Shown here piece after piece: positions 5,907-52,070 of a stretch of DNA of 64,000 nt; the stretch's first letter is position 1, and each line of letters starts with the position of its first letter. A model generated the notes under the pieces. It did not search any database. It saw only the letters and a program-made list of their open reading frames with translations, and was not told the DNA's origin. This DNA is from Hyphomicrobiales bacterium (lineage in GTDB: Bacteria > Pseudomonadota > Alphaproteobacteria > Rhizobiales > CAJQND01), in the NCBI GenBank assembly GCA_028285595.1, contig JANQOW010000053.1, positions 2,079-66,078 of the forward strand. Direction: 5' to 3'. A program made the translations under genes and the position numbers.

Positions 5907-5952
5907 TGCAAGTCCCATGGGCTGGCTGATCAAGCCAAGATGACAAAGATTT

Positions 5953-5986: not shown

Positions 5987-6036
5987 GTGGCATTAAGCGT
6001 ATCTAAGACGAAGCGTAAGCGAAGGATATCCGCCCC

Positions 6037-9725: not shown

Positions 9726-9731
9726 TTTTAT

Positions 9732-10850: not shown

Positions 10851-10856
10851 GCCGCT

Positions 10857-12070: not shown

Positions 12071-12074
<4 letters not shown>
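10857..12074 (+). CDS. yejE: ABC transporter permease YejE
   Basis: 405-aa multi-TM permease with a large periplasmic loop after TM1. It overlaps the yejF start (ATGA). Confidence 0.85.
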
Positions 12075-13699
<1,625 letters not shown>

Positions 13700-13708
13700 G
13701 TTTTGCAC

Positions 13709-14653: not shown

Positions 14654-14690
14654 GCAACGCCGTCTACGCCAAAAGAGATCTTTAAGCGCC

Positions 14691-15713: not shown

Positions 15714-15789
15714 GCTGAACGCCGTTTGCGGCACGCAACTGCCGCTCTTGCGCCTTTGCAATCGGCTTTCGAGACCCTATTTTTCCCTT

Positions 15790-16419
15790 ATGGAACTGGC
15801 CCCGGCAGAAACATATGATTTCAAGCGCACCGGCGGCGGCGTGCTGCTCATCGCCTGCGGGGCTTTGGCGCGCGAGATCATTCAGCTCATAGAGCTCAAC
15901 AGTTGGCGCCATTTCGACGTCACTTGCCTGCCCGCCAAATGGCACAACACACCAGATCTCATCCCGGAAGGGGTGCGCGGCAAGATCCGCGAGGCTAAGG
16001 GCAAGTATGAGAAAATCTATGTGCTCTACGCTGACTGCGGCACAGGAGGCCTGCTTGATAAGGTCTTGGAGGAAGAAGGCGGCGTGGAGCGCATTGGCGG
16101 GCCCCACTGCTATTCCTTCTTCTCCGGCAATGCCCTGTTTGAGGCGCGGGGCGACGAGGACATGCGCGCGTTCTTCCTAACGGACTATCTGGCCCAGCAC
16201 TTTGACAAGCTGATCTGGGAAGGCTTCGGCATCGACCGGCACCCGGACATGGTGTCCTTCGTCTTCGGTAACTATGAAAAGCTGATCTATCTGGCCCAGG
16301 CCCCTACGGACGCCTTGAAGGAAAAGGCCGAGGCCGCCGCCAACAAACTGGGACTGGCTTACGAGTACCGCGAAACCGGCTATGGCGATCTGGAAACGTT
16401 TATGCGGTCGGCGGGGTAG
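15790..16419 (+). CDS. DUF1638 domain-containing protein
   Basis: About 209 aa with LIACGALAREI...LPAKWHNTPDLIP...LYADCGTGGLLD, the pattern I associate with DUF1638. ORF-track start 15703 is TTG; ATG 15790 is preferred. Confidence 0.6.
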   Translation: MELAPAETYDFKRTGGGVLLIACGALAREIIQLIELNSWRHFDVTCLPAKWHNTPDLIPEGVRGKIREAKGKYEKIYVLYADCGTGGLLDKVLEEEGGVERIGGPHCYSFFSGNALFEARGDEDMRAFFLTDYLAQHFDKLIWEGFGIDRHPDMVSFVFGNYEKLIYLAQAPTDALKEKAEAAANKLGLAYEYRETGYGDLETFMRSAG

Positions 16420-36382: not shown

Positions 36383-36754
36383 TCAGAAGCCGTCTGCTTT
36401 GTGGCCCAGAAAGACCTTGGTCACATCCTCAACCACATCCCAGGTGACGCGGCGACCGTCACGCGACAAGATACTGTCTCCAGGTCGCAGGTCGTAAATC
36501 TGACCATCAGTGTGATCGGTAAGGCGGCAGTGACCAGACAGGATCGTCATCAACTCATCACCCTGTTCAGTGCAGTCAACAACGCCTTTCGTGCAGCGCC
36601 AGATGCCAAACCGCACGGTGTGTCCCGGCCCCCCAAAGTCGAACCGTCCAGATGCGCGTGGCGTGCCTTCCTTGATTTGATAGTCCGAATCCGGGTTGTC
36701 AAACGGCCAATCGTCCAACTGGCCAACATCATCACCTGGCTTGTACATAAACAT
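36383..36754 (-). CDS. Cupin domain protein (DUF861/EutQ-like)
   Basis: About 123-aa single cupin barrel (FGIWRCTKG...DELMTILSGHCRLTD...PGDSIL). Preferred start is MFMYKPGDD at 36754, preceded by GGAG. The ATG at 36784 lacks an SD. Confidence 0.65.
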   Translation of the reverse strand: MFMYKPGDDVGQLDDWPFDNPDSDYQIKEGTPRASGRFDFGGPGHTVRFGIWRCTKGVVDCTEQGDELMTILSGHCRLTDHTDGQIYDLRPGDSILSRDGRRVTWDVVEDVTKVFLGHKADGF

Positions 36755-36961
36755 TGGGGTTCTCCAGATGCCGCTGTCGTCCATTGGGCTGGAACCGGCG
36801 ACAAAACTTTGTGTGGTTAAGCTCTTGCAGGGCCGTTAGGGTCCTCGGGAAGCGGATAACCTGAACCGACCGGTGACGCAACCTACCCAGGCGATGAGCA
36901 TCCGGCGTGACGCTTGTGCCGGTACATGTAGGCCGTTGCAATCACATTGAGGAACCGAGCG

Positions 36962-37609
36962 ATGAACCACGACCAGCAGCCCCAAGACAAATTCTCAAGA
37001 CTTCACGACGCACTCTGGGAGGCCATCGGCTCCCAGAACGCCAGGTTTCAGGAATTCCCAGTTGAGCAGCCAGAGTTCTCACCGGTTGAAGAAGGCTATT
37101 CCGACGCAAAAGTGGGCGACGATTTTCCCGTCATGAAGCACCTTGACGAGGCGCTTAAGATCGCCGGCGAGCATGGGTTCAAGAAGATCGCAGATGCCTT
37201 TGCGGAGGTCTCAGGCGAATTGCCCTGGTCGCAAAACCCTCGCTACACGGAAGCCAATGGCGGGTTGAACCTCTTGAACGGCTATGCCTATGCGAGCCTT
37301 TCTGGCCCTGAAGGGCCCATCAAGTGCATCGCACCGCGTGGAGGCTTCTACCTGATGGGCCCGGATGTGTTCTATCCAGACCATAACCACGCCCCAAGAG
37401 AGGCATATCTGGTGATGACGCCCGGGGTCGAGTGGCGTTTGGATAAGGGTGATTGGTTCCAGGTCGAGCCGGGTGATGTGATCTACCACTCCCCCTGGCA
37501 AATGCATGCCATGCGTTCAGCGGGCAACCCTGTCTTGGCCTACGCAGTTTGGCTTGAGCCCGGCAATCGCCTTGATATTCAGTGGAGCGAAGACCGCGAA
37601 AGCGCCTAG
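36962..37609 (+). CDS. Cupin protein resembling the DMSP-lyase family (DddL/DddQ-type motif)
   Basis: Cupin metal motifs YPDHNHAPREAYLV and PGDVIYHSPWQMHAMRS in a roughly 215-aa protein. ATG 36962 is preceded by GAGGAA; ORF-track start 36947 is TTG. The family call is tentative. Confidence 0.45.
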   Translation: MNHDQQPQDKFSRLHDALWEAIGSQNARFQEFPVEQPEFSPVEEGYSDAKVGDDFPVMKHLDEALKIAGEHGFKKIADAFAEVSGELPWSQNPRYTEANGGLNLLNGYAYASLSGPEGPIKCIAPRGGFYLMGPDVFYPDHNHAPREAYLVMTPGVEWRLDKGDWFQVEPGDVIYHSPWQMHAMRSAGNPVLAYAVWLEPGNRLDIQWSEDRESA

Positions 37610-37995
37610 GCCGGCGCCGCTGCACTTACATCAATCTCGATCACGAGCGCCGGATCGAACAAGGAAACGATGACGCCCGTGACGGCACAATGCATATGCT
37701 CGCCCAAATGACGGATCCGGGCCTCGCGGCTGAGCGGCAGATTATCGCGATCGGTCAGATGCATCTTGAGCCGCACAAGATTGTCGGTGGTCATGCCGAC
37801 ACCTTCCAGAAAGCCCGCCACGTTCTTCCAGGCTTGATTGATTTGTGCTGCAGGGTCCTCAAGCAGTTCACCGTCCTTGGTCACTCCAATGATGCCGGAA
37901 GAGAAGACCAGGCGCTCAGATGGGCCCACCTCAACCGCGTTATAGTAGAGCCCAATTGGAGAATAAATCTGCTCGGGATCGAATTTTCTAATCAT
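37606..37995 (-). CDS. RidA/YjgF/TdcF family (reactive enamine/imine deaminase)
   Basis: 129 aa; MIRKFDPEQIYSPIGLYYNAVEV...VFSSGIIG...IEIDV is typical of the family. The ATG at 37995 is preceded by GAGGGG, 7 nt after the upstream stop. Confidence 0.85.
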   Translation of the reverse strand: MIRKFDPEQIYSPIGLYYNAVEVGPSERLVFSSGIIGVTKDGELLEDPAAQINQAWKNVAGFLEGVGMTTDNLVRLKMHLTDRDNLPLSREARIRHLGEHMHCAVTGVIVSLFDPALVIEIDVSAAAPA

Positions 37996-38002
37996 GAGCC
38001 CC

Positions 38003-39406
38003 TCACGTCCTGACGGGTGACATGCCTTTAAGTGCCGCATTGAACTCGGCGAGGGACGACATCTCATCCAACCTAAGAACAGCCTGCAGCGTTTGTTCCA
38101 AGTTTTCGTCAGAGATGTCCAGATTCAATGAGGCCGTCTCTCTGAATTTCTCCTCAAACTGGGCGCGCACAAGATCACGACCAGGAGCGCCTGTCCACAG
38201 GCCAACGCTCGCACTGGCCCGCCGGCCATCCTTCATGACCACCTCAACCGTGTCCGGGTCCTGCGGATCAACATTGATCTCAGGTCGCCGCGGTTGTCTG
38301 GTCGACACATCGACCCTCCCCGCGAGAGCCAAAATATCCTCACGCTGAACCGCTGCGTCACTGAAATCGGCAATCCGGTTGGCACCGGTGACCAGCCCGA
38401 GCGCGACGCAATAGGCCGTGCTGAAGAGGGCCTCCGTGCGGTCTTTGGGCACACCAAAAGGCAAGATGGCGAGGTGGAAGTCCGGCAGCGATGCCGAAGC
38501 GCTCGCAACATCGTCTGCAGACTTGATACCCAACTTGCCATGAAGCTCAATCGAACAATCGACGGATCGGTGCGTATAGCCACAGGATGGATAAACCTTG
38601 GCGCCAAGACCGAACTCTACAATAGCCCAGGGATCGCCCAACTTTGCTAGGGCCCCTTCGAAATTGGCTTTCCCTCGCGGCACCAAAAGGGTTCGAAAAC
38701 TGACATCACCGTCGAGCGCGCCCGTATAAGCAGTAGCACCGGACCGCCCCAGGCTGGCCGCCACGAGCCCGGTCTTGGCCGAGAACCCTGCGTGCAGGGG
38801 TTTGGCCGATGTGCCGAACTGGCTGACATAGCCTGAGCCAAGCGATGTGGTCAGCGAAAGCGCAGCCGCCACTGCACGTGAGTCCAACCCCCAAAGCCTG
38901 CAAACCGCAGCAGTGGCGCCGAAACTGTCCAGCGTGCTCGTCGTGTGCCAGCCAAGATTGTAATGGCCCATATTGACCGCTTCACCGAGACGGAAGATCA
39001 CCTCAAGTCCGACCAGATACGCGTCCAACAGGGCCATACCCGGCACATCCTCCCCAAGCTGATGAGAGGCTGCCAAAACGGCCGGCACCAATACGGCACT
39101 TGCATGATCATTGGCTTGGAGAGTGTAGTCGTCCAGATCATAAGCATGGGCGGCCGCTCCATTCGCCATCGCGGCCCACGGCGGCGGCAGACTGTGTTCC
39201 GTGCCATACACCGGCGCCGTGCCGGCACCCCAATCCTGTGCCGCTGCTATGGCCGCCTGGGGGGCAACCGCATTCGTTCCAAGAAGCATGCATCCGATCG
39301 TATCCAAAAACGCGCACTTTGCGCGTTCGATCGCGCCTGCGGGGTGCTGCACAGAGCTCACACTCGTAACGAACTTTGCAAGCGTGTCGATCGCCACTTC
39401 AGACAT
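38003..39406 (-). CDS. MmgE/PrpD family protein (copy 1)
   Basis: 467 aa; LDTIGCMLLG, AHAYDLDD, GWHTTST and KPLHAG are family hallmarks. Start MSEVAIDTLAKF at 39406. Confidence 0.85.
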   Translation of the reverse strand: MSEVAIDTLAKFVTSVSSVQHPAGAIERAKCAFLDTIGCMLLGTNAVAPQAAIAAAQDWGAGTAPVYGTEHSLPPPWAAMANGAAAHAYDLDDYTLQANDHASAVLVPAVLAASHQLGEDVPGMALLDAYLVGLEVIFRLGEAVNMGHYNLGWHTTSTLDSFGATAAVCRLWGLDSRAVAAALSLTTSLGSGYVSQFGTSAKPLHAGFSAKTGLVAASLGRSGATAYTGALDGDVSFRTLLVPRGKANFEGALAKLGDPWAIVEFGLGAKVYPSCGYTHRSVDCSIELHGKLGIKSADDVASASASLPDFHLAILPFGVPKDRTEALFSTAYCVALGLVTGANRIADFSDAAVQREDILALAGRVDVSTRQPRRPEINVDPQDPDTVEVVMKDGRRASASVGLWTGAPGRDLVRAQFEEKFRETASLNLDISDENLEQTLQAVLRLDEMSSLAEFNAALKGMSPVRT

Positions 39407-39420
39407 AACGGCTCTGCACC

Positions 39421-41460
39421 TCACAAAACACGGCAAAGCCGGTTGGCTTCAAGCAGTGCGGCGTGGATGTTGCGCTGGGCAACAGCATCGCCAATGCGGT
39501 AGAGCTGGTACGACCCTTCCGTATTCTCGCCCTCCGGCTGCGGTTCCAACTGCACGAGCGCTTCAACATCGAGATCACCGAGGTTTCTGGATCCTGCAGA
39601 CAGGTCGTGAAACGGCCCATCGGCGGGAACAGTGCAGGTTTCAACGATAACTTGATCGAACCGCCGTTCCACAATGGTTCGCGAAAAGTCGTTCCACAAG
39701 CTGGCAACCAGCAAATTGCCGTCGCGTCGAACCCCCTTAAGGCGGTGGTTGGGCGTTAAGGTCGCGCCGTTATTGTAGAGGTTCCGCAGGTAGACCGGGA
39801 TGTTCTGGCCACCAATGTTCAGTCCCACTTGCAGATCGGGGGTCACAATCTCAACGTTCGCCCCGTTGGAGGCAAGCCAGTCGGCGGTTGCAACGGCTCC
39901 ATGGTTGCCGGTCTCATCATAGACAAGGACATTTTCACCAGGGCCCGTCTCGCCGGACAAAACCTCCCAGGTTGAGACGGTGAGCTCTCCACCGCCATTC
40001 TCCAATTGAGCATCCGGCACACCTCCGGTGGCAACCACCACCACATCGGTCTGCTCATCCAGCGCTTCAGGCCCTTCCACATAGCGGTTCAGGTGGACCG
40101 CTACGCCCAACACCTCCAGTTCTTGCGCCAACCAGTCGGCAATGCCGATCATATCCTTCCGCCAACCGGCCCGCGCAGCCAGCACAATCTGCCCACCCAG
40201 CCTGGCACCTGCCTCATAGAGGGTGACCTTGTGCCCTCTCAACGCGGCCACCCGGGCAGCTTCCATGCCACCTGGTCCCCCGCCGATAACAACCACCTTC
40301 TTTTGCGCATCGGCCTTCGCAATCTCATGAGGCAACCAACCGTCCCGGCCGGTTGAGACATTGTGGACGCAAAGCGTCTCTCCACCGGCGTAAATACGGT
40401 CGATGCAGTAACCAGCCCCGACGCAGGGCCGAATGCGGGCTTCCTCGCCGCGCATCAATTTGGACACAAGGTGGGGGTCGGCCATATGAGGTCGCGTGAG
40501 GCCCGCCATATCCACGTACCCCTCGGCTATGGCCCAATCTGCCGTGGCCGGATCAGACAGACGTGCGGCTTGGAACACAGGCAAAGCGCTCGCCTCTTTA
40601 ACTCTGCGGGCCAGTTCCACATATGGAGCGGCCTTGTAGGCCATGCCTGGGAACGTCTCGGCAAGCCCGTGGAGCGAACCGCCGTAGGCGCCGTTGATGT
40701 TGAGAAAATCCATTGAGCCGTGTGCACCGATCATCCGAGCAAGTTCGACCCCCTCCTCTGACGGCATGCCGTTCTCATTGGTTTCATCAGCCGCGAAACG
40801 GACGCCGACAATAAAGTCGTCACCAACGCGCGCGCGAACCGCCTCCATGACCTCAATCAGAAACCGCGCCCTGTTCTCCAATTCGCCCCCGTAATCATCC
40901 GTTCGCGCATTTGACAGGGGAGAGAGATATTGCCCCAAGAGATGAGTGGTCGCCAAAATCTCGCATCCATCCAAGCCGCCCTCACGACACCTCAACGCGG
41001 CTTCGGCAAAATCCTTGACGATGCGGGCGATGTCGTGTGTCGACATTTCGCGGGGCACGGAGTGATGAGCCGGGTCGCGGATAACGCTTGGCCCGATGGT
41101 TGGGAGCCAGTCTCCCGCAGCCCACCCGGTGCGCCGGCCCATGTGTGTGATCTGGCACATGAGACCTGCGCCATGTTGGTGGACCCGCTGGGCGAATTCA
41201 CGGAAGACCGGGATAATGCTGTCATCGCCCACATAGATTTGGCCGTAGATGGATCCGGAATCCCTGCTGATGTTGGATGACCCACCAAACATGGTCAGTC
41301 CGATGCCACCCTTTGCCTTCTCCTCATGGTAGGCCTGATAGCGCTCACCAGGTTTGCCGGCCTCCGCATAGCCGGGCGCATGCGCAGTTGAGACCACGCG
41401 GTTCTTAAAGGTGCGCCCGCGGATTGTGATTGGAGACAACAGGTTTTTGTAAGCGCTCAT
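39421..41460 (-). CDS. FMN (OYE-like TIM barrel) plus FAD/NAD(P)-binding two-domain oxidoreductase, N-methylproline demethylase (StcD)-like
   Basis: 679 aa. An N-terminal OYE barrel (FKNRVVSTAH, ERYQAYHEEKAKGGIGLTM, DDYGG) is followed by the Cys cluster RPCVGAGYC...LCVHN. The second domain carries VVVIGGGPGGMEAARVAALRGHKVTLYE. Confidence 0.8.
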   Translation of the reverse strand: MSAYKNLLSPITIRGRTFKNRVVSTAHAPGYAEAGKPGERYQAYHEEKAKGGIGLTMFGGSSNISRDSGSIYGQIYVGDDSIIPVFREFAQRVHQHGAGLMCQITHMGRRTGWAAGDWLPTIGPSVIRDPAHHSVPREMSTHDIARIVKDFAEAALRCREGGLDGCEILATTHLLGQYLSPLSNARTDDYGGELENRARFLIEVMEAVRARVGDDFIVGVRFAADETNENGMPSEEGVELARMIGAHGSMDFLNINGAYGGSLHGLAETFPGMAYKAAPYVELARRVKEASALPVFQAARLSDPATADWAIAEGYVDMAGLTRPHMADPHLVSKLMRGEEARIRPCVGAGYCIDRIYAGGETLCVHNVSTGRDGWLPHEIAKADAQKKVVVIGGGPGGMEAARVAALRGHKVTLYEAGARLGGQIVLAARAGWRKDMIGIADWLAQELEVLGVAVHLNRYVEGPEALDEQTDVVVVATGGVPDAQLENGGGELTVSTWEVLSGETGPGENVLVYDETGNHGAVATADWLASNGANVEIVTPDLQVGLNIGGQNIPVYLRNLYNNGATLTPNHRLKGVRRDGNLLVASLWNDFSRTIVERRFDQVIVETCTVPADGPFHDLSAGSRNLGDLDVEALVQLEPQPEGENTEGSYQLYRIGDAVAQRNIHAALLEANRLCRVL

Positions 41461-42749
41461 TTAGATCTCCCAGCATTGCTCCACACATCGCGGGCGCGAA
41501 AAACAACATCCGCAAAAGGCAAAAACCAGGGACTTCCCCGATGCCACCATCGATTGGGAAACCCTGTCTTAGTGAACGCCGTCTCTCCGTCGCGGTCCCC
41601 GGCCATCAACAGGGCTGCTTTGTGGCCCAGATAGGGTGCCATGGCATTGCCGCTGCCGGAGTAACCCATGGCATGCCAAACGCCATCTTCTTTGCCGACA
41701 TGGGGCAGGAAGTCGAAGGTGAACCCGGTTCTGCCGCGCCAACTATGAGAGAATCCGACGCCTTTCAGTTCGGGAAAGATCTGCGTCATCAACCCTCGCA
41801 GCTCAGATTGTGCAATAGACTCAGGGGCATTGAACAGAGCCGCACGCCCACCGAACACAAGCCGTGTCCCATCTGGTGATGCCCGGTAATAGCAATGTCG
41901 TTCCCGGCTCTCCGCCACCATGCGCCCTCCTGGCAGGAGATCTTTGATCCGGTTCTCGCCGAGAGGCTCGGTGACAACAATGAAGCTCGGGATCGGAACA
42001 ATGCGCCGCTTCAGTGTCGAAAGGTGAGATGGGGTATAGCCGTTTGTGGCCACCAACACCTCGCCGGCGCGGACCCTTCCGCGGGGCGTATCGATGACAA
42101 CTCCCGCATCTGCCTGCTGCACACTTGTGACCGGCGTGTGCCCTTGGACCAGTGCGCCGGCGCGCTGGGCAGCGTTCAGAATACCTTGCACCCATTTGGC
42201 CGGATTCAGTCCACCATGCCTTGGAAAAACGATGCCGCCCGAATAGAGATCGCTGTTGACCTCGTCGCGCTGACGGGATTTCGGCACCATCTCCGCTTCA
42301 AGCGGGATCAACGATTGTAGGCGCTCAAGCCCCCGTGCCGAACTCTCATATTCCGATGGATGCCAGAGGCCGCGAAATCTTCCGGTCTCCGCGAAATCAC
42401 AGTCAATCTCTTCTTCGGCGATGAGGTCCTTGACGAAGTTGGTGGCGTTCAGATGTGCTTCTGTCAGCAGATCAAGGGCCGTCGCCTTACCGAACCGTGC
42501 CTCCATGTCGTCGATAGACATGCGATGCCCCCCACCGATCATCCCGCCATTGCGGGAACTTGCACCGATGCCAGGCGCTTCGGCGTCGAGAACCAGAACC
42601 GCTTTACCTTTCTTTGCCAATGTCCGCGCAGCGGAGAGGCCCGTCAGGCCGGCCCCAACGATCACAAAGTCAATGTCCTGCGGCAACGGGGCCTCTTTGG
42701 GCGACGTTGGCTCCCCTGCATCGTCCCACCAGTAGGGTTCAAATTTCAT
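41457..42749 (-). CDS. FAD-dependent oxidoreductase (DAO family; amine/amino-acid oxidase or dehydrogenase type)
   Basis: 430 aa with the dinucleotide fold DFVIVGAGLTGLSAARTLAKKGKAVLVLD. ATGA overlap with the downstream gene. Start MKFEPYWWDD at 42749 is verified in frame. Confidence 0.85.
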   Translation of the reverse strand: MKFEPYWWDDAGEPTSPKEAPLPQDIDFVIVGAGLTGLSAARTLAKKGKAVLVLDAEAPGIGASSRNGGMIGGGHRMSIDDMEARFGKATALDLLTEAHLNATNFVKDLIAEEEIDCDFAETGRFRGLWHPSEYESSARGLERLQSLIPLEAEMVPKSRQRDEVNSDLYSGGIVFPRHGGLNPAKWVQGILNAAQRAGALVQGHTPVTSVQQADAGVVIDTPRGRVRAGEVLVATNGYTPSHLSTLKRRIVPIPSFIVVTEPLGENRIKDLLPGGRMVAESRERHCYYRASPDGTRLVFGGRAALFNAPESIAQSELRGLMTQIFPELKGVGFSHSWRGRTGFTFDFLPHVGKEDGVWHAMGYSGSGNAMAPYLGHKAALLMAGDRDGETAFTKTGFPNRWWHRGSPWFLPFADVVFRARDVWSNAGRSK

Positions 42750-44262
42750 CGTTGCCGATTTCACGTGAGCGGCGCTCCACAAATGCGTTCAAAGCTTCCG
42801 CGCGATCTGCTTCCAGGTTTGGTGCTTCGTAGGCCGCCAACATTTCCTTCCACTTGGCGTTGGCGCGGATAGCGGTATCGGGCGAACCATCAGCCTCCCA
42901 GAACTCATAGGGTCTCCAGTCTGACAGAATGGGAGCGTGAAAGGCCGTCTGATACCGGGCCATTGTGTGCGAAGACCCCAGGAAATGCCCGCCGGGGCCA
43001 ACTTCTTCAATGGCGGCAATCGCTTCCTCTGCATCGCTGAAGTCAATACGGCCACTGAGAGCCCCCATCATCCCGATCATTTCCGCATCAATGATCGTCT
43101 TTTCAAAACCTGTGGTAAGGCCGGCCTCCATCCAACCGTGCGCATGATAGACGCAATGCGCCCCGCACAGCACACCAGCCCACAAGGAGAACATTGTTTC
43201 ATATGCGCCCTGGGCGTCCGGGGCATTGGAGCTGGAGCCCAGCATGAGGCGTTGGGGAAGCTTATAGCGGCGGGCCATCTGACCGTTCGACAATGTACCG
43301 GTGACGGTTTCCGGCACACCCATGGCCGGGGCGCCGGACTTCATGTCGATCGGGGTGGTCAACACACCATAAAAGCAAGGAGCACCGGCGCGCACCATCT
43401 GAAGAAAGGCAATGACACCAATGGCCTCGGCATTACATTGGATGAGACTTCCAGATAGCGTTATCGGCGACATCGCTCCGGCAAAGGCGACGGGCGAAAT
43501 GACGTTCGCCTGGCCGTTCGCAGCCATTTCCATCGCACCTTCCAGCAGCGGTTCATCTACAACCAAGGGGGAGTTCACGGAGATACTGGCATGCAGTCGG
43601 GGCTCGGCTGCGAGTTCATCACGGGTTATGCCGTGGGCAAGTGCGGTCATCTCCAGACTATCGCGCACACGCGTTTCGCCGATCGCATAGACACGGGTCA
43701 CCTTGTCGGACAGCGTCTGCCACGAGCGCATGCTTGTCAGATGACGGGTGTTGACGGGAGTGTCGATCGGCTCGACCGGATGGCCGGAATGGAAGGCACA
43801 CGTTGGGATCATTTGGTTGAGTTTGACCAGATCCTCGAAGTCCTTTTGCGTTCCGGGGCGGCGGCCGCGATCCATGTCCAGCACGTTCGGCGCAGAAGAC
43901 GCTGAACCGAAGTGAATATCGCCGCACCCAAAGTGGAGATCGTGAGCACGATTGCGCGCCCGCATGGTGAATTCTGACGGCGCCAAAGCCAGGAAGTGTT
44001 CCACCACTTCTGGCGGAAAACGGGCGATGCCCGTCTCCCGATCAACCGCGCAGCCATTGGCCTCCAGGATAGGCCAGCTCCTCTCCGCCATAAACTTCAG
44101 CCCAATGCGCTCAAGAACCTGAAGCGAGAGTGCGTGAACTCTTTCTTCTTCTTCTGCGGTAAGCAAGTCGATCGGCGCATAGGGCCGCTGAATGGGCTTG
44201 AACGTCGGCGCCTCCGCAGGGGCTACCTCTTTGGTTCTGCGCCCTTGCCGTCGGGCAGACAT
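42739..44262 (-). CDS. MttB (trimethylamine methyltransferase) superfamily protein, non-pyrrolysine type (copy 1)
   Basis: About 507-aa uninterrupted ORF with an Arg/Lys-rich N-terminus, then LTAEEEERVHALSLQVLERIGLKF, and the C-terminus GPGGHFLGSSHTMARY. ATG 44262 is preceded by GGAGG. Confidence 0.85.
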   Translation of the reverse strand: MSARRQGRRTKEVAPAEAPTFKPIQRPYAPIDLLTAEEEERVHALSLQVLERIGLKFMAERSWPILEANGCAVDRETGIARFPPEVVEHFLALAPSEFTMRARNRAHDLHFGCGDIHFGSASSAPNVLDMDRGRRPGTQKDFEDLVKLNQMIPTCAFHSGHPVEPIDTPVNTRHLTSMRSWQTLSDKVTRVYAIGETRVRDSLEMTALAHGITRDELAAEPRLHASISVNSPLVVDEPLLEGAMEMAANGQANVISPVAFAGAMSPITLSGSLIQCNAEAIGVIAFLQMVRAGAPCFYGVLTTPIDMKSGAPAMGVPETVTGTLSNGQMARRYKLPQRLMLGSSSNAPDAQGAYETMFSLWAGVLCGAHCVYHAHGWMEAGLTTGFEKTIIDAEMIGMMGALSGRIDFSDAEEAIAAIEEVGPGGHFLGSSHTMARYQTAFHAPILSDWRPYEFWEADGSPDTAIRANAKWKEMLAAYEAPNLEADRAEALNAFVERRSREIGNDEI

Positions 44263-44325
44263 GAGAGACCTCCAAGCATGTAATCGCTGAACACTAGGCC
44301 TTTCAGTCCATGCTATCACCTGATA

Positions 44326-45279
44326 TTGTATAATTTCAGATATAACAGTTTCGCATACCTTGCTGTGAGATTTGCCGACTTACAAACGTTTATCGATGTC
44401 ATAGAGCATGGCGGCATGACCCAGGCGGCCGCCATTAACGGCGTCTCACAACCAGGGATCAGCAGGTCAATACGAGATCTTGAGACGCGTATGCGCGCGA
44501 CGTTGTTGCGCCGCACCGGGCGCGGCGTGGAGTTGACCCCTGCTGGTATGGAGTTTCTCGCCTTTGCAAAATCCAGCCTAAGCGCGCTCGAAGACGCCAA
44601 ATCAAGGATAATGGAGGTTTCCGGCAACATTCCCGAGAGGTTGCACATTGCCATTCCGGACCGGCTTGGGTCTGTGGTGTACCCGGTCCTCTATCGCCAA
44701 TTCATGCTGGAGCTTCCCGAAGTTGCGGTTGCCGCCACAGAGACCCTAACGGCGGATATGATTGACGGCATTAACGCAGGGCGCGTGGACTTGTCAGTCT
44801 CCTATCTGCCGACGATCCCTGGGGCCTACGGTGGCGAACCCGCCTTTCGCGAGAGCCTCTATTTGGTGGAGAGAAAGACCAAAACGGTCAGCAAGGACGT
44901 CACCGTCTCCCTTGCCGATGTCGCTAAGCAACCTTTTCTTCTGAACCACCAGGGCAGCGCCTACCATCGCCTCATAGATGCCGCGTTCTCAGCAGCCGGG
45001 CACAAGCTGATCGTCGCCAGAGAGTTTGAAACAGCAGAGAGCTTGCTTGCATTTGCATGCGAAGGTGAAGGCGTGACGATCCTTCCTTACAGCAACTTTC
45101 GCACGGAGGCGCAGCGCGGCGACGTTATAGGGCGGCTCATAACTGACCCGGGGATTGAGCGAAATGTCTACGTTCACGCCGGGCGACACTTGGACAACCG
45201 CACCGCAAACCTCGCCCGCGGCATCATTCTGCGCTGTCTCAATGAGATCGCCGAAAGCGTCCGCTGGTCGCCCATGTAA
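44326..45279 (+). CDS. LysR family transcriptional regulator (divergent from the MttB operon)
   Basis: HTH LQTFIDVIEHGGMTQAAAINGVSQPGISRSIRDLE plus a LysR substrate-binding domain. The start is uncertain: 44326 is TTG, and an in-frame GTG at 44365 gives a more typical N-terminus. Confidence 0.85.
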   Translation: MYNFRYNSFAYLAVRFADLQTFIDVIEHGGMTQAAAINGVSQPGISRSIRDLETRMRATLLRRTGRGVELTPAGMEFLAFAKSSLSALEDAKSRIMEVSGNIPERLHIAIPDRLGSVVYPVLYRQFMLELPEVAVAATETLTADMIDGINAGRVDLSVSYLPTIPGAYGGEPAFRESLYLVERKTKTVSKDVTVSLADVAKQPFLLNHQGSAYHRLIDAAFSAAGHKLIVAREFETAESLLAFACEGEGVTILPYSNFRTEAQRGDVIGRLITDPGIERNVYVHAGRHLDNRTANLARGIILRCLNEIAESVRWSPM

Positions 45280-45376
45280 ACCGCGCTGACGGAGCTGAAT
45301 GGACAGTGATGTCTTGACTTGGCGCCTCCGTCAACGGACATAGCTTTTCGACAGTCCTTTCAGAAAGACACAAAAC

Positions 45377-46384
45377 ATGGCTCGCAACACGCAGGTTGTC
45401 CTTAGAAACAGGCCGGGCACCCGGCTCGCCGAGACCGATGTTGAATTGGTTGAGCGCGATATACCGGAACTTGGAGAAAATGAGTTTCTTGTTGAGAGCA
45501 AATATGTGTCGATCGACTTTGCCATGCGGGGCTGGATGGCAGCGGGCCGGTCCTATGTCCCCACCCTTGATCTCGGCGCGGTGGTGCGCGGCTGTTCGGC
45601 AGGAACCGTTATCTCATCGCATAACGAGAGCTTTCCTGAGGGCGCTCAGGTTTGCGGCATGCTCGGCGTTCAAAGCCATGCCATCAGTGACGGAACAGGT
45701 GTCTACACAGTTAACCCGGAGCAAGCTTCGTTAAAACGTTGGGCGGGCGGCCTAGGGCCGACCACTGCCCTAACCGCCTATCTCGGGCTTCTCCATGCGG
45801 GCCGACCAGAACAGGACGACACCGTATTCGTCTCCGGGGCCACCGGGGCCGTTGGCTCATTGGTCGGGCAAATGGCAAAGCTCAAGAAATGCCGTGCAGT
45901 GGGCACGGCCGGCAACGCGGCCAAATGTGATTTTGTTGTGAGCGAGTACGGATTCGATGCGTGCGTCGATTACACAGCAGACACTCTTGCAGATCAGATT
46001 GCGGAGGCGTGCCCGGACCGCATTGACGTGCTTTTTGAAAATGTGGGCGGTGCCCTGTTTGATACCAGCCTGTTGCAGATGAACACGTTCGGGAGAGTTG
46101 TCCTGTGCGGCTTCACATCGGACCGCACCGCGCCGGAGCCTTATGGAGTGAAGAACCTCCGCGCGGTGCTGATGGAGCGGCTCACCATGTTGGGGTTCAT
46201 CTTGTTTGAGTATGCCGACGGGTATCAAACCGCGGCGGATGATATCGGGGCCTGGTTTGCTGACGGAAAACTGACATTGCAAGGGGATGAAGAAGTGTAT
46301 CCGGGGGGCTTGCCGGCGTTCGCCTCCGCACTGAACCGGGTGCTGGATGGACAAAACACCGGGAAGGTCATTTTGGAGATTTAG
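45377..46384 (+). CDS. NADP-dependent oxidoreductase, medium-chain dehydrogenase/reductase family (YncB/CurA/alkenal reductase-like)
   Basis: 335 aa with the cofactor motif VSGATGAVGSLVGQMAK and no catalytic Zn ligands. Confidence 0.8.
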   Translation: MARNTQVVLRNRPGTRLAETDVELVERDIPELGENEFLVESKYVSIDFAMRGWMAAGRSYVPTLDLGAVVRGCSAGTVISSHNESFPEGAQVCGMLGVQSHAISDGTGVYTVNPEQASLKRWAGGLGPTTALTAYLGLLHAGRPEQDDTVFVSGATGAVGSLVGQMAKLKKCRAVGTAGNAAKCDFVVSEYGFDACVDYTADTLADQIAEACPDRIDVLFENVGGALFDTSLLQMNTFGRVVLCGFTSDRTAPEPYGVKNLRAVLMERLTMLGFILFEYADGYQTAADDIGAWFADGKLTLQGDEEVYPGGLPAFASALNRVLDGQNTGKVILEI

Positions 46385-47298
46385 GACTCTCGCAGCCACC
46401 TGGCCCGGTCGCTGTTCTCAACAAAAGCCTGTTTGATCAGGGCGATGGTGTGACGCACCAATGGGTTTGCCGCAGTGGAGCTGCCAGCAACCGATATGCC
46501 GCGGGTAATGGTAGGCTCAATGATCTTGCGAGCGACGAGTTCGCCATTTTCGACCTCTTCCCAAAGATTGCTGTAAGGCAGAATGGTGAGCCCTTCCCCT
46601 TGAGCGGCAAAAGACACATGGGCATGGATCGTTTCCAGCTCGCGCGCCACAATTGGCTCGTGGCCGGCCTTGCGCATGCTGTCTTCGATCAGCCCTCTAT
46701 AGTGTGCGGGCCTTGACTGCAGCAAAAGAGGATAGGAGGCGACCTCTGCCATCGTCATTGCGGTCGCGTCTGTGCCCAAAAGGGCGCTTGAGCCGAAAGC
46801 GTAGAGTTCTTCATGGCCCAGTTCCTCTGAGGCTAGGTTGGGCGGCTCAGGCGGCGTGTAAAACACACCCACATCCATCTCACGGGCCGCAAGCATGTCT
46901 TGGGTCTGGATGTTCAGGTTTTCAAAGACATGGATCGACGCGTTGGGAAACGCGTTTGAAAAACTCGTGACCAGCGGAGCCATGATCAGACGTCCGACCC
47001 GCATCGGTATGGACACATTTAATGCACCGACCTCGGTGCCACGGAGTTGTTCGGCGCACTCCAGCAACTGATCGTACTCCAAGATCACTGAAGATGCCTG
47101 CTGCAGAAACACCTCTCCGGCCTTGGAAGGCTTTACGCCCCGCCCTGTTCGCTCAAACAGCTTGACCCCATGCGTCTCCTCAAGGTCCCGCACGATCCGG
47201 CTGAGAGATGCTTGGGCAACACCCAAACGAGACGCGGCCAGCGAAATGGATCCCGCCTGCTCAACGGCCAACAACATCTGCAGGTGCCTGATCTTCAT
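46381..47298 (-). CDS. LysR family transcriptional regulator (divergent from the second MttB gene)
   Basis: HTH MKIRHLQMLLAVEQAGSISLAASRLGVAQASLSRIVRDLE. The C-terminal region (TILPYSN...RW) is paralogous to the regulator at 44326-45279. Confidence 0.9.
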   Translation of the reverse strand: MKIRHLQMLLAVEQAGSISLAASRLGVAQASLSRIVRDLEETHGVKLFERTGRGVKPSKAGEVFLQQASSVILEYDQLLECAEQLRGTEVGALNVSIPMRVGRLIMAPLVTSFSNAFPNASIHVFENLNIQTQDMLAAREMDVGVFYTPPEPPNLASEELGHEELYAFGSSALLGTDATAMTMAEVASYPLLLQSRPAHYRGLIEDSMRKAGHEPIVARELETIHAHVSFAAQGEGLTILPYSNLWEEVENGELVARKIIEPTITRGISVAGSSTAANPLVRHTIALIKQAFVENSDRARWLRES

Positions 47299-47439
47299 GT
47301 TGCCTCATCATGCTCAACCGGCCTGATATTACAATAATGTTATAGCTGATGCTCTGTTTTTGTGGCTTGTTCAAACCCTGCCGGCGCTATTCGATGGTCG
47401 TGGGAATTTCGGCCTACATGCCCCTTTAAGAGGAGTGGA

Positions 47440-48981
47440 ATGGGACCTGCGATCCGATCTAAACGCACCCGGCGCCGGCGCGACGCTCTTGCAGACCGTG
47501 AGCACAGCGCTCCGGTGGAAATGCCGTCAAGGCACGGTCTTCCGCCGGCTGAAGTTCTGACCGCAGAGCAAATCGAAGATGTTCATGCTTACTCAACGCG
47601 CCTTCTTGAGGAGGTGGGCATTGAGTTTATGCTCCCAGCCGCCTGGGATATCCTGGAAGCGAACGGTGCAAAGGTCGATCGCGACAGCGGCATGGTCAAA
47701 ATGGATCGTGGGCTGGTTGAGCACTGGGTCTCTAAGGCTCCGAGCACGTTTGACTTAAAGGCGCGCGAGAGCTCTCGCGATATCAGCTTTGGCGGAAAAG
47801 AGATTGCCTATGGTTCGGTCGCCAGCGCGCCGAATGCCTTGGATGCGGAACGCAGACGCACCGTAGGCAGTCAGTCCAGTTTCCGTGACTTGCTCAAGTT
47901 AAGCCACACCCTCAGCACCTGTTCCTTCTTCTCAGGTTATCCCGTCGAGCCGATAGACCTTCCGGTAAACACGCGCCATCTGGATTGCTACGCTGATCTC
48001 CTCACGCTGACGGACAAGCCGTTCAGGATTTATGCAATCGGTGAGACCCGGGTGACAGACGCGCTCGATATGGTTTGCCTTGGCCACGGGATCAACCGCG
48101 ACGAACTAAGAGAAGCACCGCGCCTCATCACAAACCTCAACGTAAACTCGCCTCTACGCGTTGATGCACCTTTGCTCGAGGGCGCAATGGAGATGGCCAG
48201 AAACGGTCAGATCGTCGTCGTCACGCCAGTGGCGTTTTCCGGAGCCATGACACCGATCACTCTGTCCGGAACCCTGATTCAGTTTAATGCAGAGTGCCTT
48301 GCCACGATCGCGTTCCTCCAGATGGTCCGTGCCGGTGCGCCGGTTATGTATGGCACGGTGTTCGCGAACGTGGACATGAAGTCCGGCGCACCGATCCTCG
48401 GGTCCGCTGAAATGAGCACAGGCATGATCGCCACCGGCCAACTCGCGCGGCGCTATGGCATTCCCATGCGGGGCTTTCTTGGATCATCCTCCAAGGCGCC
48501 TGATGCTCAAGCTGCCTATGAGACAATGATCTGCTTGTGGGCCAACGTCTTGGCTGGCGTGCACTGCGTGTTCCACGCTCACGGCCTTTTGGATACCGGC
48601 TTGATTGCCTCGTACGAAAAAGCCGTCCTGGATTCTGACCTGATTGGAATGATGCAGGTTGTCTCTCCAACCGTTGACTTTTCAGATCTCGACGAAGCGT
48701 TCGATGCCATTAAGACCGTCGGTCCCGGCGGACACTTCCTGGGAGCAGACCACACCATGGCGCGGTACAAGACGGCGTTCCACACTCCGCTCCTTTCCGA
48801 TTGGCGGGCATACGAGTTTTGGGAAAGCGACGGCGCAAAAGACACCGCCGTTCGAGCGACCGAAAAGTGGAAGGAGTTGCTTGATAGCTATGTGCCGCCG
48901 GATCTTCCCGCCGGCCGAGCTGAGGCCCTTGAGGAATTCGTCATCCGGCGCAAGCAGGAAATCGGAGACATGGACATATAA
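47440..48981 (+). CDS. MttB superfamily protein, non-pyrrolysine type (copy 2)
   Basis: Collinear with copy 1, roughly 60% identity by eye, sharing blocks such as YAIGETRV, PLLEGAMEMA, FLQMVRAGAP, DMKSGAP and GPGGHFLG. ATG 47440 is preceded by AAGAGGAG; ORF-track start 47362 is rejected. Confidence 0.85.
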   Translation: MGPAIRSKRTRRRRDALADREHSAPVEMPSRHGLPPAEVLTAEQIEDVHAYSTRLLEEVGIEFMLPAAWDILEANGAKVDRDSGMVKMDRGLVEHWVSKAPSTFDLKARESSRDISFGGKEIAYGSVASAPNALDAERRRTVGSQSSFRDLLKLSHTLSTCSFFSGYPVEPIDLPVNTRHLDCYADLLTLTDKPFRIYAIGETRVTDALDMVCLGHGINRDELREAPRLITNLNVNSPLRVDAPLLEGAMEMARNGQIVVVTPVAFSGAMTPITLSGTLIQFNAECLATIAFLQMVRAGAPVMYGTVFANVDMKSGAPILGSAEMSTGMIATGQLARRYGIPMRGFLGSSSKAPDAQAAYETMICLWANVLAGVHCVFHAHGLLDTGLIASYEKAVLDSDLIGMMQVVSPTVDFSDLDEAFDAIKTVGPGGHFLGADHTMARYKTAFHTPLLSDWRAYEFWESDGAKDTAVRATEKWKELLDSYVPPDLPAGRAEALEEFVIRRKQEIGDMDI

Positions 48982-48982
48982 G

Positions 48983-50386
48983 ATGGCATTGGCCTTGGAC
49001 GCAGAACCGATTGGCCAGACGGCAATCCGCACATTGGCGGCGTTTATCGCCAATGCACCGCGCAGGTACGGACCGGTGGCGCGTGAGCGGTCGCGGTTTG
49101 CCATTCTGGATACGGTCGGATGTATGATTTTCGGTCAATCGAGCCCGGAAGCTCAAGCTGCGTTCGCATCGGTTTCCGGTTGGGGGACAGGTCCTGCAAT
49201 GGTGGTTGGCAAAGACGTTGGATTGCCGCCACCTTGGGCTGCTTTCGTGAACGCCACCGCGGCACATGCGCTTGACTATGATGATTGGGACGATCCATCC
49301 CTGGTCCACACCAGCGCGGTGTTGCTACCTGCCATACTCGCCGTTGCAACGGAGCGGGAAGCAGATGGCGCAGACGTTTTAGACGCACATATTGTTGGCG
49401 TTGAGACGCTGCTGCGGATCGGAGAGGCCGTTAACCCAAGCCACTACTGGAACGGATGGCACGCAACATCAACGATCGGTGCCATTGGCGCAGCGGCTGC
49501 CGTGTCACGGATGTTGGCGCTTGATGAAGATCAGACAGCAAATGCCCTGTCCATCGCAACCAGCATGGCCGGTGGCTATGTCAGCCAATTTGGCACCATG
49601 ACAAAGCCCATGCATGCAGGTTTTGCCGCCAAAGCAGGAGTTTTCGCCGCTGCTTTGGCCAAAGCAGGCACCAGTGCCCAAGAAGCCGCGCTCGATGGCC
49701 CGGTGAGCTTCAGAAGCACAACCGCCAACGTGGATCAGGAGGCATTTTTCACAGCTTTCGGAAAGCTGGGAACACCGTGGGCGATCGAAGAGTATGGGAT
49801 GCACATCAAGCTTTACCCCTCTTGCGGCGGCACGCACCGGGTTATCGAAGCCGCGCTCATGCTAAGAAAAGACAACCAAATCGATCCCAGCCGGATTCGG
49901 GATATCGAAGTGAATGTGCCTGAGTTCCTCATCGAGCTTCTCCCCTACAAAGTCCCGAACACCCGCCCGGAAGCACTCTTCAGTTTGCCTTATTGCGCAG
50001 CGGCAGCATTGATGTGGGGAAAAGTGGGGATCGACGAGTTCAGCGATGACGCAATCAACGATGGCACCGTCCGCGCTATATCAGCCCGGGTTCGCCTAAC
50101 AACACGCGCGTTCAACTATCAGACCCACCTCTTTGTGAAGGGCAATTTCGACGTCGTCACTGTTACCACCGAAGACGGACGCACGTTCAGCGCCTCGATC
50201 GACATTCCGTACGGCGCACCGCCGAGATTTGCAGATCAAGAGACCGTTGAGCGGAAATTCATGGATTGCGCGCGCCGGGGTCTGCCGGAAGATCAAGCCA
50301 CACAGATCATGGAGTTGCTGCGCGCACCTGCAGCCCAGTGGGCTCCCTCAGATCTCTGTAACCGCATGACACCTCTTCAAAGCTAA
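48983..50386 (+). CDS. MmgE/PrpD family protein (copy 2)
   Basis: 467 aa. The ATG lies 1 nt after the mttB-2 stop (TAA G ATG), in frame with ORF-track 48659. It shares LDTVGCM, AHALDYDD, GWHATST and KPMHAG with copy 1. Confidence 0.85.
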   Translation: MALALDAEPIGQTAIRTLAAFIANAPRRYGPVARERSRFAILDTVGCMIFGQSSPEAQAAFASVSGWGTGPAMVVGKDVGLPPPWAAFVNATAAHALDYDDWDDPSLVHTSAVLLPAILAVATEREADGADVLDAHIVGVETLLRIGEAVNPSHYWNGWHATSTIGAIGAAAAVSRMLALDEDQTANALSIATSMAGGYVSQFGTMTKPMHAGFAAKAGVFAAALAKAGTSAQEAALDGPVSFRSTTANVDQEAFFTAFGKLGTPWAIEEYGMHIKLYPSCGGTHRVIEAALMLRKDNQIDPSRIRDIEVNVPEFLIELLPYKVPNTRPEALFSLPYCAAAALMWGKVGIDEFSDDAINDGTVRAISARVRLTTRAFNYQTHLFVKGNFDVVTVTTEDGRTFSASIDIPYGAPPRFADQETVERKFMDCARRGLPEDQATQIMELLRAPAAQWAPSDLCNRMTPLQS

Positions 50387-50420
50387 GCCAGAACTCCAGA
50401 ATGAATGAAAGGGAGAATTT

Positions 50421-52070
50421 ATGACAAAGAAACCTGAGAAAACCGCACAAGTAGGCGACAAAATTGTCTTCGGCTCCATGCCAGATGCCGACAAAGAGTT
50501 TGTGGTCGATGCCCTGAAAAAAGGAGCCACGCGCCGCCAAGTGATGGGTTGGTTGATGGCCATGGGCGCAACCATTGGTGCAGCCGGCTCCATCGTAACA
50601 AGCGCGACCGAAGCCATCGCCGCCACGCCCAAGAAAGGCGGCAAGATTCGTATGGCGTGGGACCAACATGGACCGGGCGACACCCTGGATCCGGCCGGTT
50701 ACCTCAACACATTGGACTATTGCCGCGGACGCATGATGTACAACAGTCTCGTGCGCTTCAATGATGACCTGACGGTGCGCGGCGAGTTGGCCACTTCGTT
50801 TGAAGCCAGTCCCGATGCCAAAACCTGGACGTTCAAGATCCGCAAGGATGTGGAATGGCATGATGGCAGCAAGCTAACGGCAGACGATGTTGTCTACTCC
50901 ATGATGCGCCATGTGGGAGAAGATTCAAAATCGGCCGTCAAGGTTCTCTCCTCTCCAGTGAAAGAGTGGAAGAAAATCGACGAAGAAACCGTACAGGCAA
51001 CGTGCCACCAGGGCTTTGCAGAATTGCCGGTTGTGCTGGCCACATTCCACTTCAAGGTCATCAAAGACGGCACGACCGATTTCACAAATCCGACCGGCAC
51101 CGGCCCGTTCAAACTCAAGGAGTTCAAGCCTGGCATTCGGGCGGTGCATGTGCGCAATGACAATTACTGGAACGACGAGGCCGGACCATATGTGGACGAG
51201 ATCGAGTCATTCGGCGTTACAGATTCGGTTGCGCGTGTGAACGCACTCCTGTCTGGGGATCTGAACATGATGGGCAATCTCGATCCCAAGGCTATTGCCC
51301 AGGTGGAGCAGACCGATGGCGTAGAAGTCTTCGAGGTGCCCTCGGGTCGGTATCCCTCGATCACTTGCATGGTGGATCGCGAGCCCGGCAACAATCCAGA
51401 CTTCGTCCTTGGTTTGAAACACCTCCAGCGGCGGGACCGTGTTCTCAAAGTCGTCCAAAAGGGCAAGGGCAGCATCGGCAACGACCAGCCCATCGGCGAG
51501 CCCTATGGTGCAGGCTATTGCAAGGACCAGGTGATCAGGCCGTACGATCCTGAGAAGGCCAAGTTTCACCTCAAAAAGTCCGGCATTACGAGCGCTGAGG
51601 TGAATGTCGCAGAGATCTATCCGGGTATGACCGATATCTGCCTCATGCTGCAGCGCGAGTGCGCCAAGGTTGGGTTCGAACTCAAGATCAAGAAAGTCCC
51701 GAATGACGGGTACTGGGGTGCGGTCTGGATGAAGACGCCCATGAACGTGGTGGCTTGGAACATGCGTCCAAGTGCAACCATCATGATGGGTTTGGCGTAC
51801 AAATCCGACGCCAAATGGAACGAAACCGGATGGAAGAACGAGCGGTTCGACCAACTCCACACCATGGCGGTGGCAGAACTTGATGAGAGCAAGAAGTACG
51901 AGATGCTGTGCGAGATGCAGAAACTGATCTCCGATTATTCGGGCTCTCTTGTCCCCACAACCGCCAGCTACGTGGACGGCATCTCATCCAAAGTTAAGGG
52001 CATGCCCCGCGTGTCTCTTGCCGCCCTGGGTGGAATGGAGTGGCCGGAGTTTGTCTGGCTTGACTCATAA
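50421..52070 (+). CDS. ABC transporter substrate-binding protein, family 5, with a Tat-type signal
   Basis: 549 aa. Twin-arginine motif GATRRQVMGWLMAMGATIGAAG...AIA after a long n-region. SD AAAGGGAG. No permease or ATPase gene is adjacent. Confidence 0.85.
   Translation: MTKKPEKTAQVGDKIVFGSMPDADKEFVVDALKKGATRRQVMGWLMAMGATIGAAGSIVTSATEAIAATPKKGGKIRMAWDQHGPGDTLDPAGYLNTLDYCRGRMMYNSLVRFNDDLTVRGELATSFEASPDAKTWTFKIRKDVEWHDGSKLTADDVVYSMMRHVGEDSKSAVKVLSSPVKEWKKIDEETVQATCHQGFAELPVVLATFHFKVIKDGTTDFTNPTGTGPFKLKEFKPGIRAVHVRNDNYWNDEAGPYVDEIESFGVTDSVARVNALLSGDLNMMGNLDPKAIAQVEQTDGVEVFEVPSGRYPSITCMVDREPGNNPDFVLGLKHLQRRDRVLKVVQKGKGSIGNDQPIGEPYGAGYCKDQVIRPYDPEKAKFHLKKSGITSAEVNVAEIYPGMTDICLMLQRECAKVGFELKIKKVPNDGYWGAVWMKTPMNVVAWNMRPSATIMMGLAYKSDAKWNETGWKNERFDQLHTMAVAELDESKKYEMLCEMQKLISDYSGSLVPTTASYVDGISSKVKGMPRVSLAALGGMEWPEFVWLDS

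Follow-up and report, generated by a model that had tools for sequence, protein, structure and literature searches.

Every characterized enzyme of the MttB superfamily methylates a corrinoid (PMC13080624, PMC8604678), and in aerobic alphaproteobacteria the corrinoid protein may be encoded far from the methyltransferases that use it. For example, the up to seven PF06253 paralogues found per genome in work on Ruegeria pomeroyi are proposed to feed one hub, made up of MtgC (SPO2160), MtgD (SPO1863), RamA (SPO2041) and the DUF1638 protein SPO2162, which is unlinked to the PF06253 genes (Mausz et al. 2025, PMC12478193). In that organism, PF06253 proteins are induced by glycine betaine, and mtgC and mtgD mutants neither grow on glycine betaine nor make their own methionine, MtgC and MtgD being common to methionine synthesis; according to the same authors, Hyphomicrobiales typically carry mtgBCD (PMC12478193). 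In Phaeobacter inhibens, fitness data indicate that a RamA-like protein and DUF1638 serve a split methionine synthase, and across alphaproteobacteria DUF1638 and the RamA-like activase occur together (Price et al. 2018, PMC5764234). Here we analyze a 64-kb stretch of DNA, "the window," from an uncultured Hyphomicrobiales-like metagenome-assembled genome (MAG), which carries two MttB paralogues, MttB1 and MttB2, with no such partners beside them. We consider it very probable that both are substrate-specific substrate:corrinoid methyltransferase (MT1) modules belonging to a three-component methyltransferase system that depends on cobalamin and is dispersed, its hub being in all likelihood present elsewhere in the source genome.

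The two genes are as follows.
42739..44262, minus strand: MttB1, non-pyrrolysine MttB-superfamily methyltransferase, predicted MT1 (PF06253, E 9e-166)
47440..48981, plus strand: MttB2, second non-pyrrolysine MttB-superfamily methyltransferase, paralogue of MttB1 (PF06253, E 6e-167)

In the Pfam scan, both proteins cover profile positions 2-500 of 500, with 552 and 556 bits, respectively, and they align with each other without a gap at 58% identity. Their reading frames are uninterrupted, with no internal stop and hence no pyrrolysine codon, and their scores against TIGR02369, the profile of the pyrrolysine-type trimethylamine enzyme, are 292 bits (MttB1) and 300 bits (MttB2) against a cut-off of 525 bits; together, these two results place MttB1 and MttB2 among the non-pyrrolysine members of the superfamily. 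With no in-frame UAG and both scores under the cut-off, trimethylamine methyltransferase MttB in the strict sense is ruled out. The likely starts are 44262 and 47440, both of which agree with gene calls on an independent Logan contig of the same sequence, the call for MttB2 being identical; the GTG starts implied by the coordinates of an earlier, sequence-only reading of this DNA were over-extended. The closest solved structures to MttB1 are 4YYC, 2QNE and 9YCE. A plasmid collection held no close MttB1 orthologue, its best match being 43% identical.

Are the partners of these enzymes encoded nearby? Pfam scans of about 58 open reading frames (ORFs), which account for essentially all of the coding space of the window, returned no B12-binding domain (PF02310 or PF02607), no Pterin_bind or MtrH domain, and no RACo/RamA activase domain. 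MtgC, MtgD, MtgE, RamA and MetF2 proteins from related loci were used as seeds in a tblastn search of the window in six frames, which reached no E value below 0.2; a hidden Markov model built from three MtgC sequences and run on the window with filters off (--max) reached none below 2. In the window, Rfam found only a signal recognition particle (SRP) RNA and no cobalamin riboswitch. Pfam scans and six-frame searches thus agree with the sequence-only reading that neither MttB paralogue has a corrinoid protein, methyl-acceptor methyltransferase (MT2) or activase in the window. A CobW-named gene was considered as a sign of cobalamin metabolism and rejected; it encodes a COG0523 GTPase paired with a DUF1826 protein (31610-33471, minus strand), with no cob genes nearby. 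The pairing of COG0523 with DUF1826 is usually related to zinc rather than to cobalamin.

The same separation is seen in other genomes. No corrinoid genes lie within 10 kb in nine loci of the MttB1/MttB2 clade, so that in the window and in all nine of these loci the MttB paralogues are unlinked to genes for a corrinoid protein, MT2 or activase, and separation is the stable, normal state of the clade. The sequence-only reading had taken adjacency to the partners as the usual arrangement for MttB enzymes, which is true of anaerobes and does not carry over to aerobic alphaproteobacteria, among which dispersal is common. Given the R. pomeroyi and P. inhibens precedents, partners encoded elsewhere are the published norm for such organisms, and the gap is an ordinary one. 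Of the two explanations that had been offered for it, partners that are encoded elsewhere and shared are strongly supported by the R. pomeroyi and P. inhibens genetics and proteomics (PMC12478193, PMC5764234) together with our comparative evidence, and a different methyl acceptor or chemistry has gained no positive support.

One component of a hub does lie inside the window.
15790..16419, plus strand: DUF1638 protein (PF07796, E 3e-26), intact, ATG start confirmed

It is flanked by asparaginase II on one side and by a TlpA-like thioredoxin, argH and lysA on the other, and it ends a co-directional block (6037-16419, plus strand) that also includes two tandem SBP_bac_5 genes, an Opp/Dpp-type ATP-binding cassette (ABC) transporter, a D-2-hydroxyacid dehydrogenase and the asparaginase II; three related MAGs (L007-L009) keep this block. 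When species-representative genomes were scanned with the DUF1638 protein, the closest matches came from uncultured MAGs labelled "Pseudomonadota," "Alphaproteobacteria" and "Hyphomicrobiales," the best being 97% identical, partial, and on a 5.5-kb contig. A Rhodobacterales origin, which a dimethylsulfoniopropionate-lyase gene and the GC content had suggested, was rejected, the nearest relatives being MAGs of Hyphomicrobiales type. The order Opp-type ABC transporter, 2-hydroxyacid dehydrogenase, asparaginase II, DUF1638, tlpA, argH, lysA is shared by four MAGs (L007-L010), one of which, L010, is close to species level, with proteins of this region 95-98% identical to those of the window. None of these four syntenic relatives has hub genes within 10 kb of DUF1638.

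In five loci of more distant relatives (L012, L017, L018, L019 and L032), DUF1638 orthologues that are 50-73% identical lie directly downstream of MtgC, a protein of 232-271 residues with B12-binding_2 and B12-binding domains. The hub is contiguous in Rhizobium albus (L017), where a betaine-binding protein, MtgE (homocysteine S-methyltransferase), MtgC, DUF1638, a methylenetetrahydrofolate reductase-like protein (MetF2), MtgD (Pterin_bind) and RamA (Fer2-RACo) are encoded together; in L032, MtgC, DUF1638, MtgD, RamA and an MttB follow in a row. The closed Aestuariivirgaceae chromosome OZ244154.1 has MtgE, MtgC and one MttB paralogue at 3.47 Mb (L035) and DUF1638, MetF2 and another MttB paralogue at 3.52 Mb (L013), which shows that hub genes can lie about 50 kb apart in one genome. 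MtgC-type proteins are widespread and conserved in the order, all 8000 of the 8000 candidates listed having E<=1e-40 and the best 120 being at least 87% identical to the seed. An MtgC candidate, P0243, was dismissed as coming from a different sample. Since the DUF1638 gene of the window is orthologous to the copies that follow MtgC, one component of a dispersed hub is inside the window after all. Its position was correctly given by the sequence-only reading, and it is no incidental neighbour of housekeeping genes. It is best read as a relocated hub member and as a marker that the rest of the hub exists, and the hub to which it belongs would support both MttB-family enzymes and the split methionine synthase.

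What do MttB1 and MttB2 act on? We mapped the glycine betaine site of Desulfitobacterium hafniense MtgB onto both proteins through alignments with 9YCE. In MtgB, Tyr97 and Phe356 bind the trimethylammonium group by cation-pi interactions, and Arg312 and His348 bind the carboxylate (PMC13080624). The corresponding residues are as follows.
MtgB Tyr97: Ser122 in MttB1, Ala128 in MttB2
MtgB Arg312: Arg338 in MttB1, Arg344 in MttB2
MtgB His348: His373 in MttB1, His379 in MttB2
MtgB Phe356: Gly381 in MttB1, Gly387 in MttB2

The resulting Ser/Ala-Arg-His-Gly pattern is found in 124 of 126 homologues (at least 54% identity), with the carboxylate-binding Arg kept in all 126 and the His in 125. Assignment of MttB1 and MttB2 as the glycine betaine methyltransferase MtgB was rejected: both have the Arg and His pair and neither has the aromatic pair Tyr97/Phe356. 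Since Arg and His are retained, and since Arg312 is common to all characterized family members, all of which use acidic quaternary amines (PMC13080624), the substrate predicted from these residues is most likely an acidic betaine other than glycine betaine, and it is probably bulkier than glycine betaine.

The two MttB genes belong to two paralogous modules that stand back to back over 37606-52070; within each operon, the junctions measure 1-26 nt. The other genes of these modules are as follows.
37606..37995, minus strand: RidA/YjgF-family protein, last gene of the MttB1 operon (PF01042; Logan gene call)
38003..39406, minus strand: MmgE/PrpD-family protein 1, PrpD_1 (PF03972 and PF19305)
39421..41460, minus strand: FadH/TMADH-family flavoprotein with flavin mononucleotide (FMN) and FAD/NAD(P) domains (Oxidored_FMN and Pyr_redox)
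41457..42764, minus strand: FAD-dependent amine/amino-acid oxidase of the DAO family (PF01266, E 1.5e-58)
44416..45279, plus strand: LysR-type regulator LysR_1, divergent from MttB1 (HTH_1 and LysR_substrate)
45377..46384, plus strand: quinone-oxidoreductase-like medium-chain dehydrogenase of the MttB2-type module (ADH_N_2 and ADH_zinc_N)
46381..47298, minus strand: LysR-type regulator LysR_2, divergent from MttB2 (HTH_1 and LysR_substrate)
48983..50386, plus strand: MmgE/PrpD-family protein 2, PrpD_2 (PF03972 and PF19305)
50421..52070, plus strand: family-5 periplasmic solute-binding protein, SBP5 (SBP_bac_5, E 1.5e-64)

Much of the MttB1 module recurs elsewhere. MttB1 orthologues that are 75-88% identical are present in six assemblies (L003, L022, L023, L025, L027 and L028) in a common module, which runs from a divergent LysR through MttB, sometimes a DAO-family oxidase, and a 679-residue FadH/TMADH-family flavoprotein to an MmgE/PrpD-family protein. 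LysR_1 orthologues (55-70% identity) are divergent from the MttB1 orthologues in five loci. The DAO oxidase overlaps the MttB1 stop by 26 nt, and its best NCBIfam match, to L-pipecolate oxidase, is weak; among the orthologous loci, L022 and L028 carry the oxidase, and L003, L025 and L027 lack it. The flavoprotein comes closest, among solved structures, to 1PS9, 6QKG and trimethylamine dehydrogenase (TMADH), and has orthologues that are 63-87% identical downstream of MttB in these six assemblies and in L034. It has Ala in place of Cys30 of TMADH, the residue of covalent FMN attachment, and Ala at the second Cys of the FadH/TMADH 4Fe-4S motif C-x2-C-x2/3-C...C, which here reads CVGAGYC...C; because of these two replacements, its cluster type and reaction class are uncertain. 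Among solved structures, PrpD_1 is most similar to bacterial IRG1-like proteins and to iminodisuccinate epimerase, and it has orthologues after the flavoprotein in L003, L022 and L027. The RidA/YjgF gene is not kept in the orthologous loci.

The MttB2 module has its counterpart in L034, a 7.6-Mb genome with a 69%-identical MttB2 orthologue in a module of SBP5, quinone-oxidoreductase-like dehydrogenase, divergent LysR, MttB, flavoprotein and MmgE/PrpD. The dehydrogenase of L034 is 45% identical to that of the window and is equally placed relative to LysR and MttB, and its LysR, divergent from the MttB2 orthologue, is 50% identical to LysR_2. LysR_1 and LysR_2 are 31% identical to each other. 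PrpD_2 begins 1 nt past the MttB2 stop and is 62% identical to the L034 PrpD and 43% identical to PrpD_1. SBP5 is likely the uptake component of the MttB2 module; the SBP5 of L034 is 33% identical to it. In the window, the flavoprotein is found in the MttB1 module only, the MttB2 module having no copy of its own; the flavoprotein may be common to both modules or may have been lost from the MttB2 module, given that the MttB2-type module of L034 has its own copy. In L004, a 72%-identical MttB has a LysR and an MmgE/PrpD protein on one side and a cupin of the dimethylsulfoniopropionate (DMSP)-lyase family on the other. Literature searches that paired MttB with the PrpD family, and the PrpD family with betaine or demethylase, found no linking paper in the library searched.

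Several further genes lie around the modules. A DMSP-lyase-family cupin (PF16867, E 4e-38; 36947-37609, plus strand) is encoded just past the MttB1 operon, and the PF16867 cupin of L004 (11573-12148) is likewise directly downstream of its MttB, making this a recurring association. An EutQ-like Cupin_3 protein (36383-36784, minus strand) is also near the MttB1 operon, and on the Aestuariivirgaceae chromosome a Cupin_3 protein (L035, 13446-13829) is directly downstream of the MttB paralogue that stands beside MtgC. Just downstream of the MttB2 module are a CaiB/Frc-like family III CoA-transferase (52172-53371, minus strand), which best matches CoA-transferases for succinate-glutarate and for mesaconate, and a homologue of DehI-like halocarboxylic acid dehalogenases (56718-57599, plus strand). 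The 5.58-Mb relative L003 has a second, distant MttB paralogue (5686-7203) beside its MttB1 orthologue; this second gene, grouped with an SRPBCC protein, a protein of the arylmalonate-decarboxylase family and a dimethylglycine-dehydrogenase-like protein, makes up a further, distinct MttB module that has no corrinoid genes. Away from the modules, Pfam matched nothing, even at E 0.01, in a 346-residue ORF (54806-55846, plus strand; Logan gene call) flanked by a major facilitator superfamily transporter and a DsbA-like protein. The longest dnaX ORF (345-2348) contains, in its 5' extension, the bacterial small SRP RNA (RF00169, 55 bits; 2201-2297, minus strand), so that the true dnaX start must lie downstream of about position 2200.

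How might these parts work together? In the mechanism that we propose, MttB1 and MttB2 would bind an acidic quaternary amine, though not glycine betaine, and present one N-methyl group to the Co(I) of an MtgC-type protein, which would be encoded elsewhere and be common to other MttB paralogues and probably also to methionine synthesis. A pterin-binding MtgD would pass the methyl group to tetrahydrofolate, and a RamA/RACo-type activase together with DUF1638 would re-reduce oxidized cobalamin. The LysR regulators, flavoprotein, DAO oxidase, MmgE/PrpD proteins, RidA and SBP5 would provide substrate-specific regulation, uptake and processing of the demethylated product. By analogy with established betaine pathways, the pathway might open with transfer of the first methyl group to cobalamin by MttB, after which the flavoprotein, a member of the family of trimethylamine and histamine dehydrogenases, might remove or process the next methyl group; an ene-reductase role is equally conceivable for the flavoprotein. 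The secondary amine or imine that results might then be handled by the DAO oxidase and RidA, and the MmgE/PrpD protein might epimerize, decarboxylate or dehydrate an intermediate. We see about an even chance that, with its corrinoid mechanism kept, the module as a whole catabolizes an acidic quaternary amine different from glycine betaine by a route not described before, in which an MmgE/PrpD protein would have a new role.

There are points that weigh against a dispersed corrinoid system. With both cation-pi aromatics of MtgB replaced in MttB1 and MttB2, the substrate class is uncertain; the MtgC, MtgD and RamA of the source genome and their use by MttB1 and MttB2 are things that we infer; and the match lists of MttB1, MtgC and DUF1638 share no large contig of the clade (5.58, 2.26, 5.05 and 7.6 Mb), overlapping only in other lineages (contigs of 3,862,100, 1,292,340, 25,825 and 5,972). 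Could the clade then work without a corrinoid protein, transferring methyl groups directly to another acceptor, for instance tetrahydrofolate or a thiol, or catalyzing some other reaction in which the substrate is not a quaternary amine? The absence of corrinoid genes within 10 kb of the nine clade loci fits this idea, as do the Ser/Ala and Gly that replace the MtgB aromatics in 124 of the 126 clade members, the invariable pairing with a flavoprotein and an MmgE/PrpD protein, which are not methyl-transfer proteins, and literature searches that gave no characterized member of the clade. We nevertheless regard it as very unlikely, because corrinoid methylation is the rule for all characterized superfamily members (PMC13080624, PMC8604678), the carboxylate-binding Arg and His are kept, the hub marker DUF1638 is in the window, and R. 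pomeroyi MttB paralogues that are likewise unlinked depend on a remote MtgC (PMC12478193).

Two other explanations accept the corrinoid mechanism and differ on the whereabouts of the hub. If the hub had been lost, or had never been binned into the MAG, MttB1 and MttB2 would be inactive or decaying orphans, and indeed we only infer the hub of the source genome, a MAG that may be incomplete. Decay is hard to reconcile with two intact, full-length genes in tight operons with junctions of 1-26 nt, or with the persistence of the module in six other assemblies, where the orthologues are 75-88% identical, a sign of purifying selection; the DUF1638 gene is also intact, with its synteny kept in four related MAGs, and its family co-occurs with the RamA-like activase in alphaproteobacteria (PMC5764234). 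This explanation is, in our judgment, highly improbable. We attach equally little credence to linked partners in the remainder of the source contig, which at 78,191 bp leaves about 14 kb outside the window: even there, no less than 15-38 kb would separate the partners from the MttB genes, so that they would not share an operon, and the four syntenic relatives have no hub genes within 10 kb of DUF1638. A dispersed, cobalamin-dependent system thus remains our preferred reading of MttB1 and MttB2.

The missing neighbouring partners raise no new question, as papers of 2018 and 2025 showed that in aerobic alphaproteobacteria several MttB paralogues run off one remote hub. For annotation, an MttB that lacks an adjoining corrinoid protein should not be taken as cobalamin-independent, and a lone DUF1638 gene is a useful flag for a hub. 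What is new is modest: an uncharacterized clade of MttB proteins set apart by its active-site signature and by its conserved flavoprotein and MmgE/PrpD partners. The remaining interest lies in the LysR-MttB-flavoprotein-MmgE/PrpD module, which is found widely among Hyphomicrobiales-like bacteria of sea and soil; the identity of its substrate would add another cobalamin-dependent osmolyte sink to the nitrogen and one-carbon cycles of both settings.

Among known systems, the closest in structure is 4YYC, a putative trimethylamine methyltransferase from Sinorhizobium meliloti, also an aerobic alphaproteobacterium (E 1e-85 to 6e-92); it is about 40% identical, keeps Tyr at the position of MtgB Tyr97, and has another gene neighbourhood. 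A pSymA-encoded MttB copy of S. meliloti, which is about 40% identical to MttB1 and may or may not be the 4YYC protein, has no adjacent corrinoid genes. D. hafniense MtgB (2QNE, 9YCE) belongs to the same fold family (E 2e-75) with Arg312 and His348 conserved, but its Tyr97 is Ser/Ala and its Phe356 is Gly in MttB1 and MttB2, and its gene adjoins that of the corrinoid protein DSY3155. The MT1 paralogues MtpB, MtcB, MtyB and MthB of Eubacterium limosum, each dedicated to its own acidic quaternary amine and with Arg312 conserved, offer a likeness of organization, in that they feed one corrinoid protein and one MT2; E. limosum, however, is an anaerobic acetogen with other accessory genes, and neither a FadH/TMADH-like flavoprotein nor an MmgE/PrpD partner is known from it. 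In the P. inhibens three-part methionine synthase, as is proposed here, DUF1638 is tied genetically to a stand-alone B12-binding protein and the RamA-like activase is encoded elsewhere; there DUF1638 adjoins the B12-binding gene, whereas in the window and the four syntenic MAGs it stands beside asparaginase II and tlpA-argH-lysA. The MtgBCD(E) system of R. pomeroyi DSS-3 differs in that the implicated enzymes are glycine betaine methyltransferases, whereas MttB1 and MttB2 lack both MtgB aromatics, and in that the flavoprotein and MmgE/PrpD module is not described there; the window, moreover, comes from an uncultured Hyphomicrobiales-like MAG with a presumed hub. In its overall design, the R. 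pomeroyi system is the one that MttB1 and MttB2 resemble: an aerobic alphaproteobacterium with several PF06253 paralogues encoded apart from a single MtgC, MtgD, RamA and DUF1638, through which the methyl group is delivered to tetrahydrofolate.

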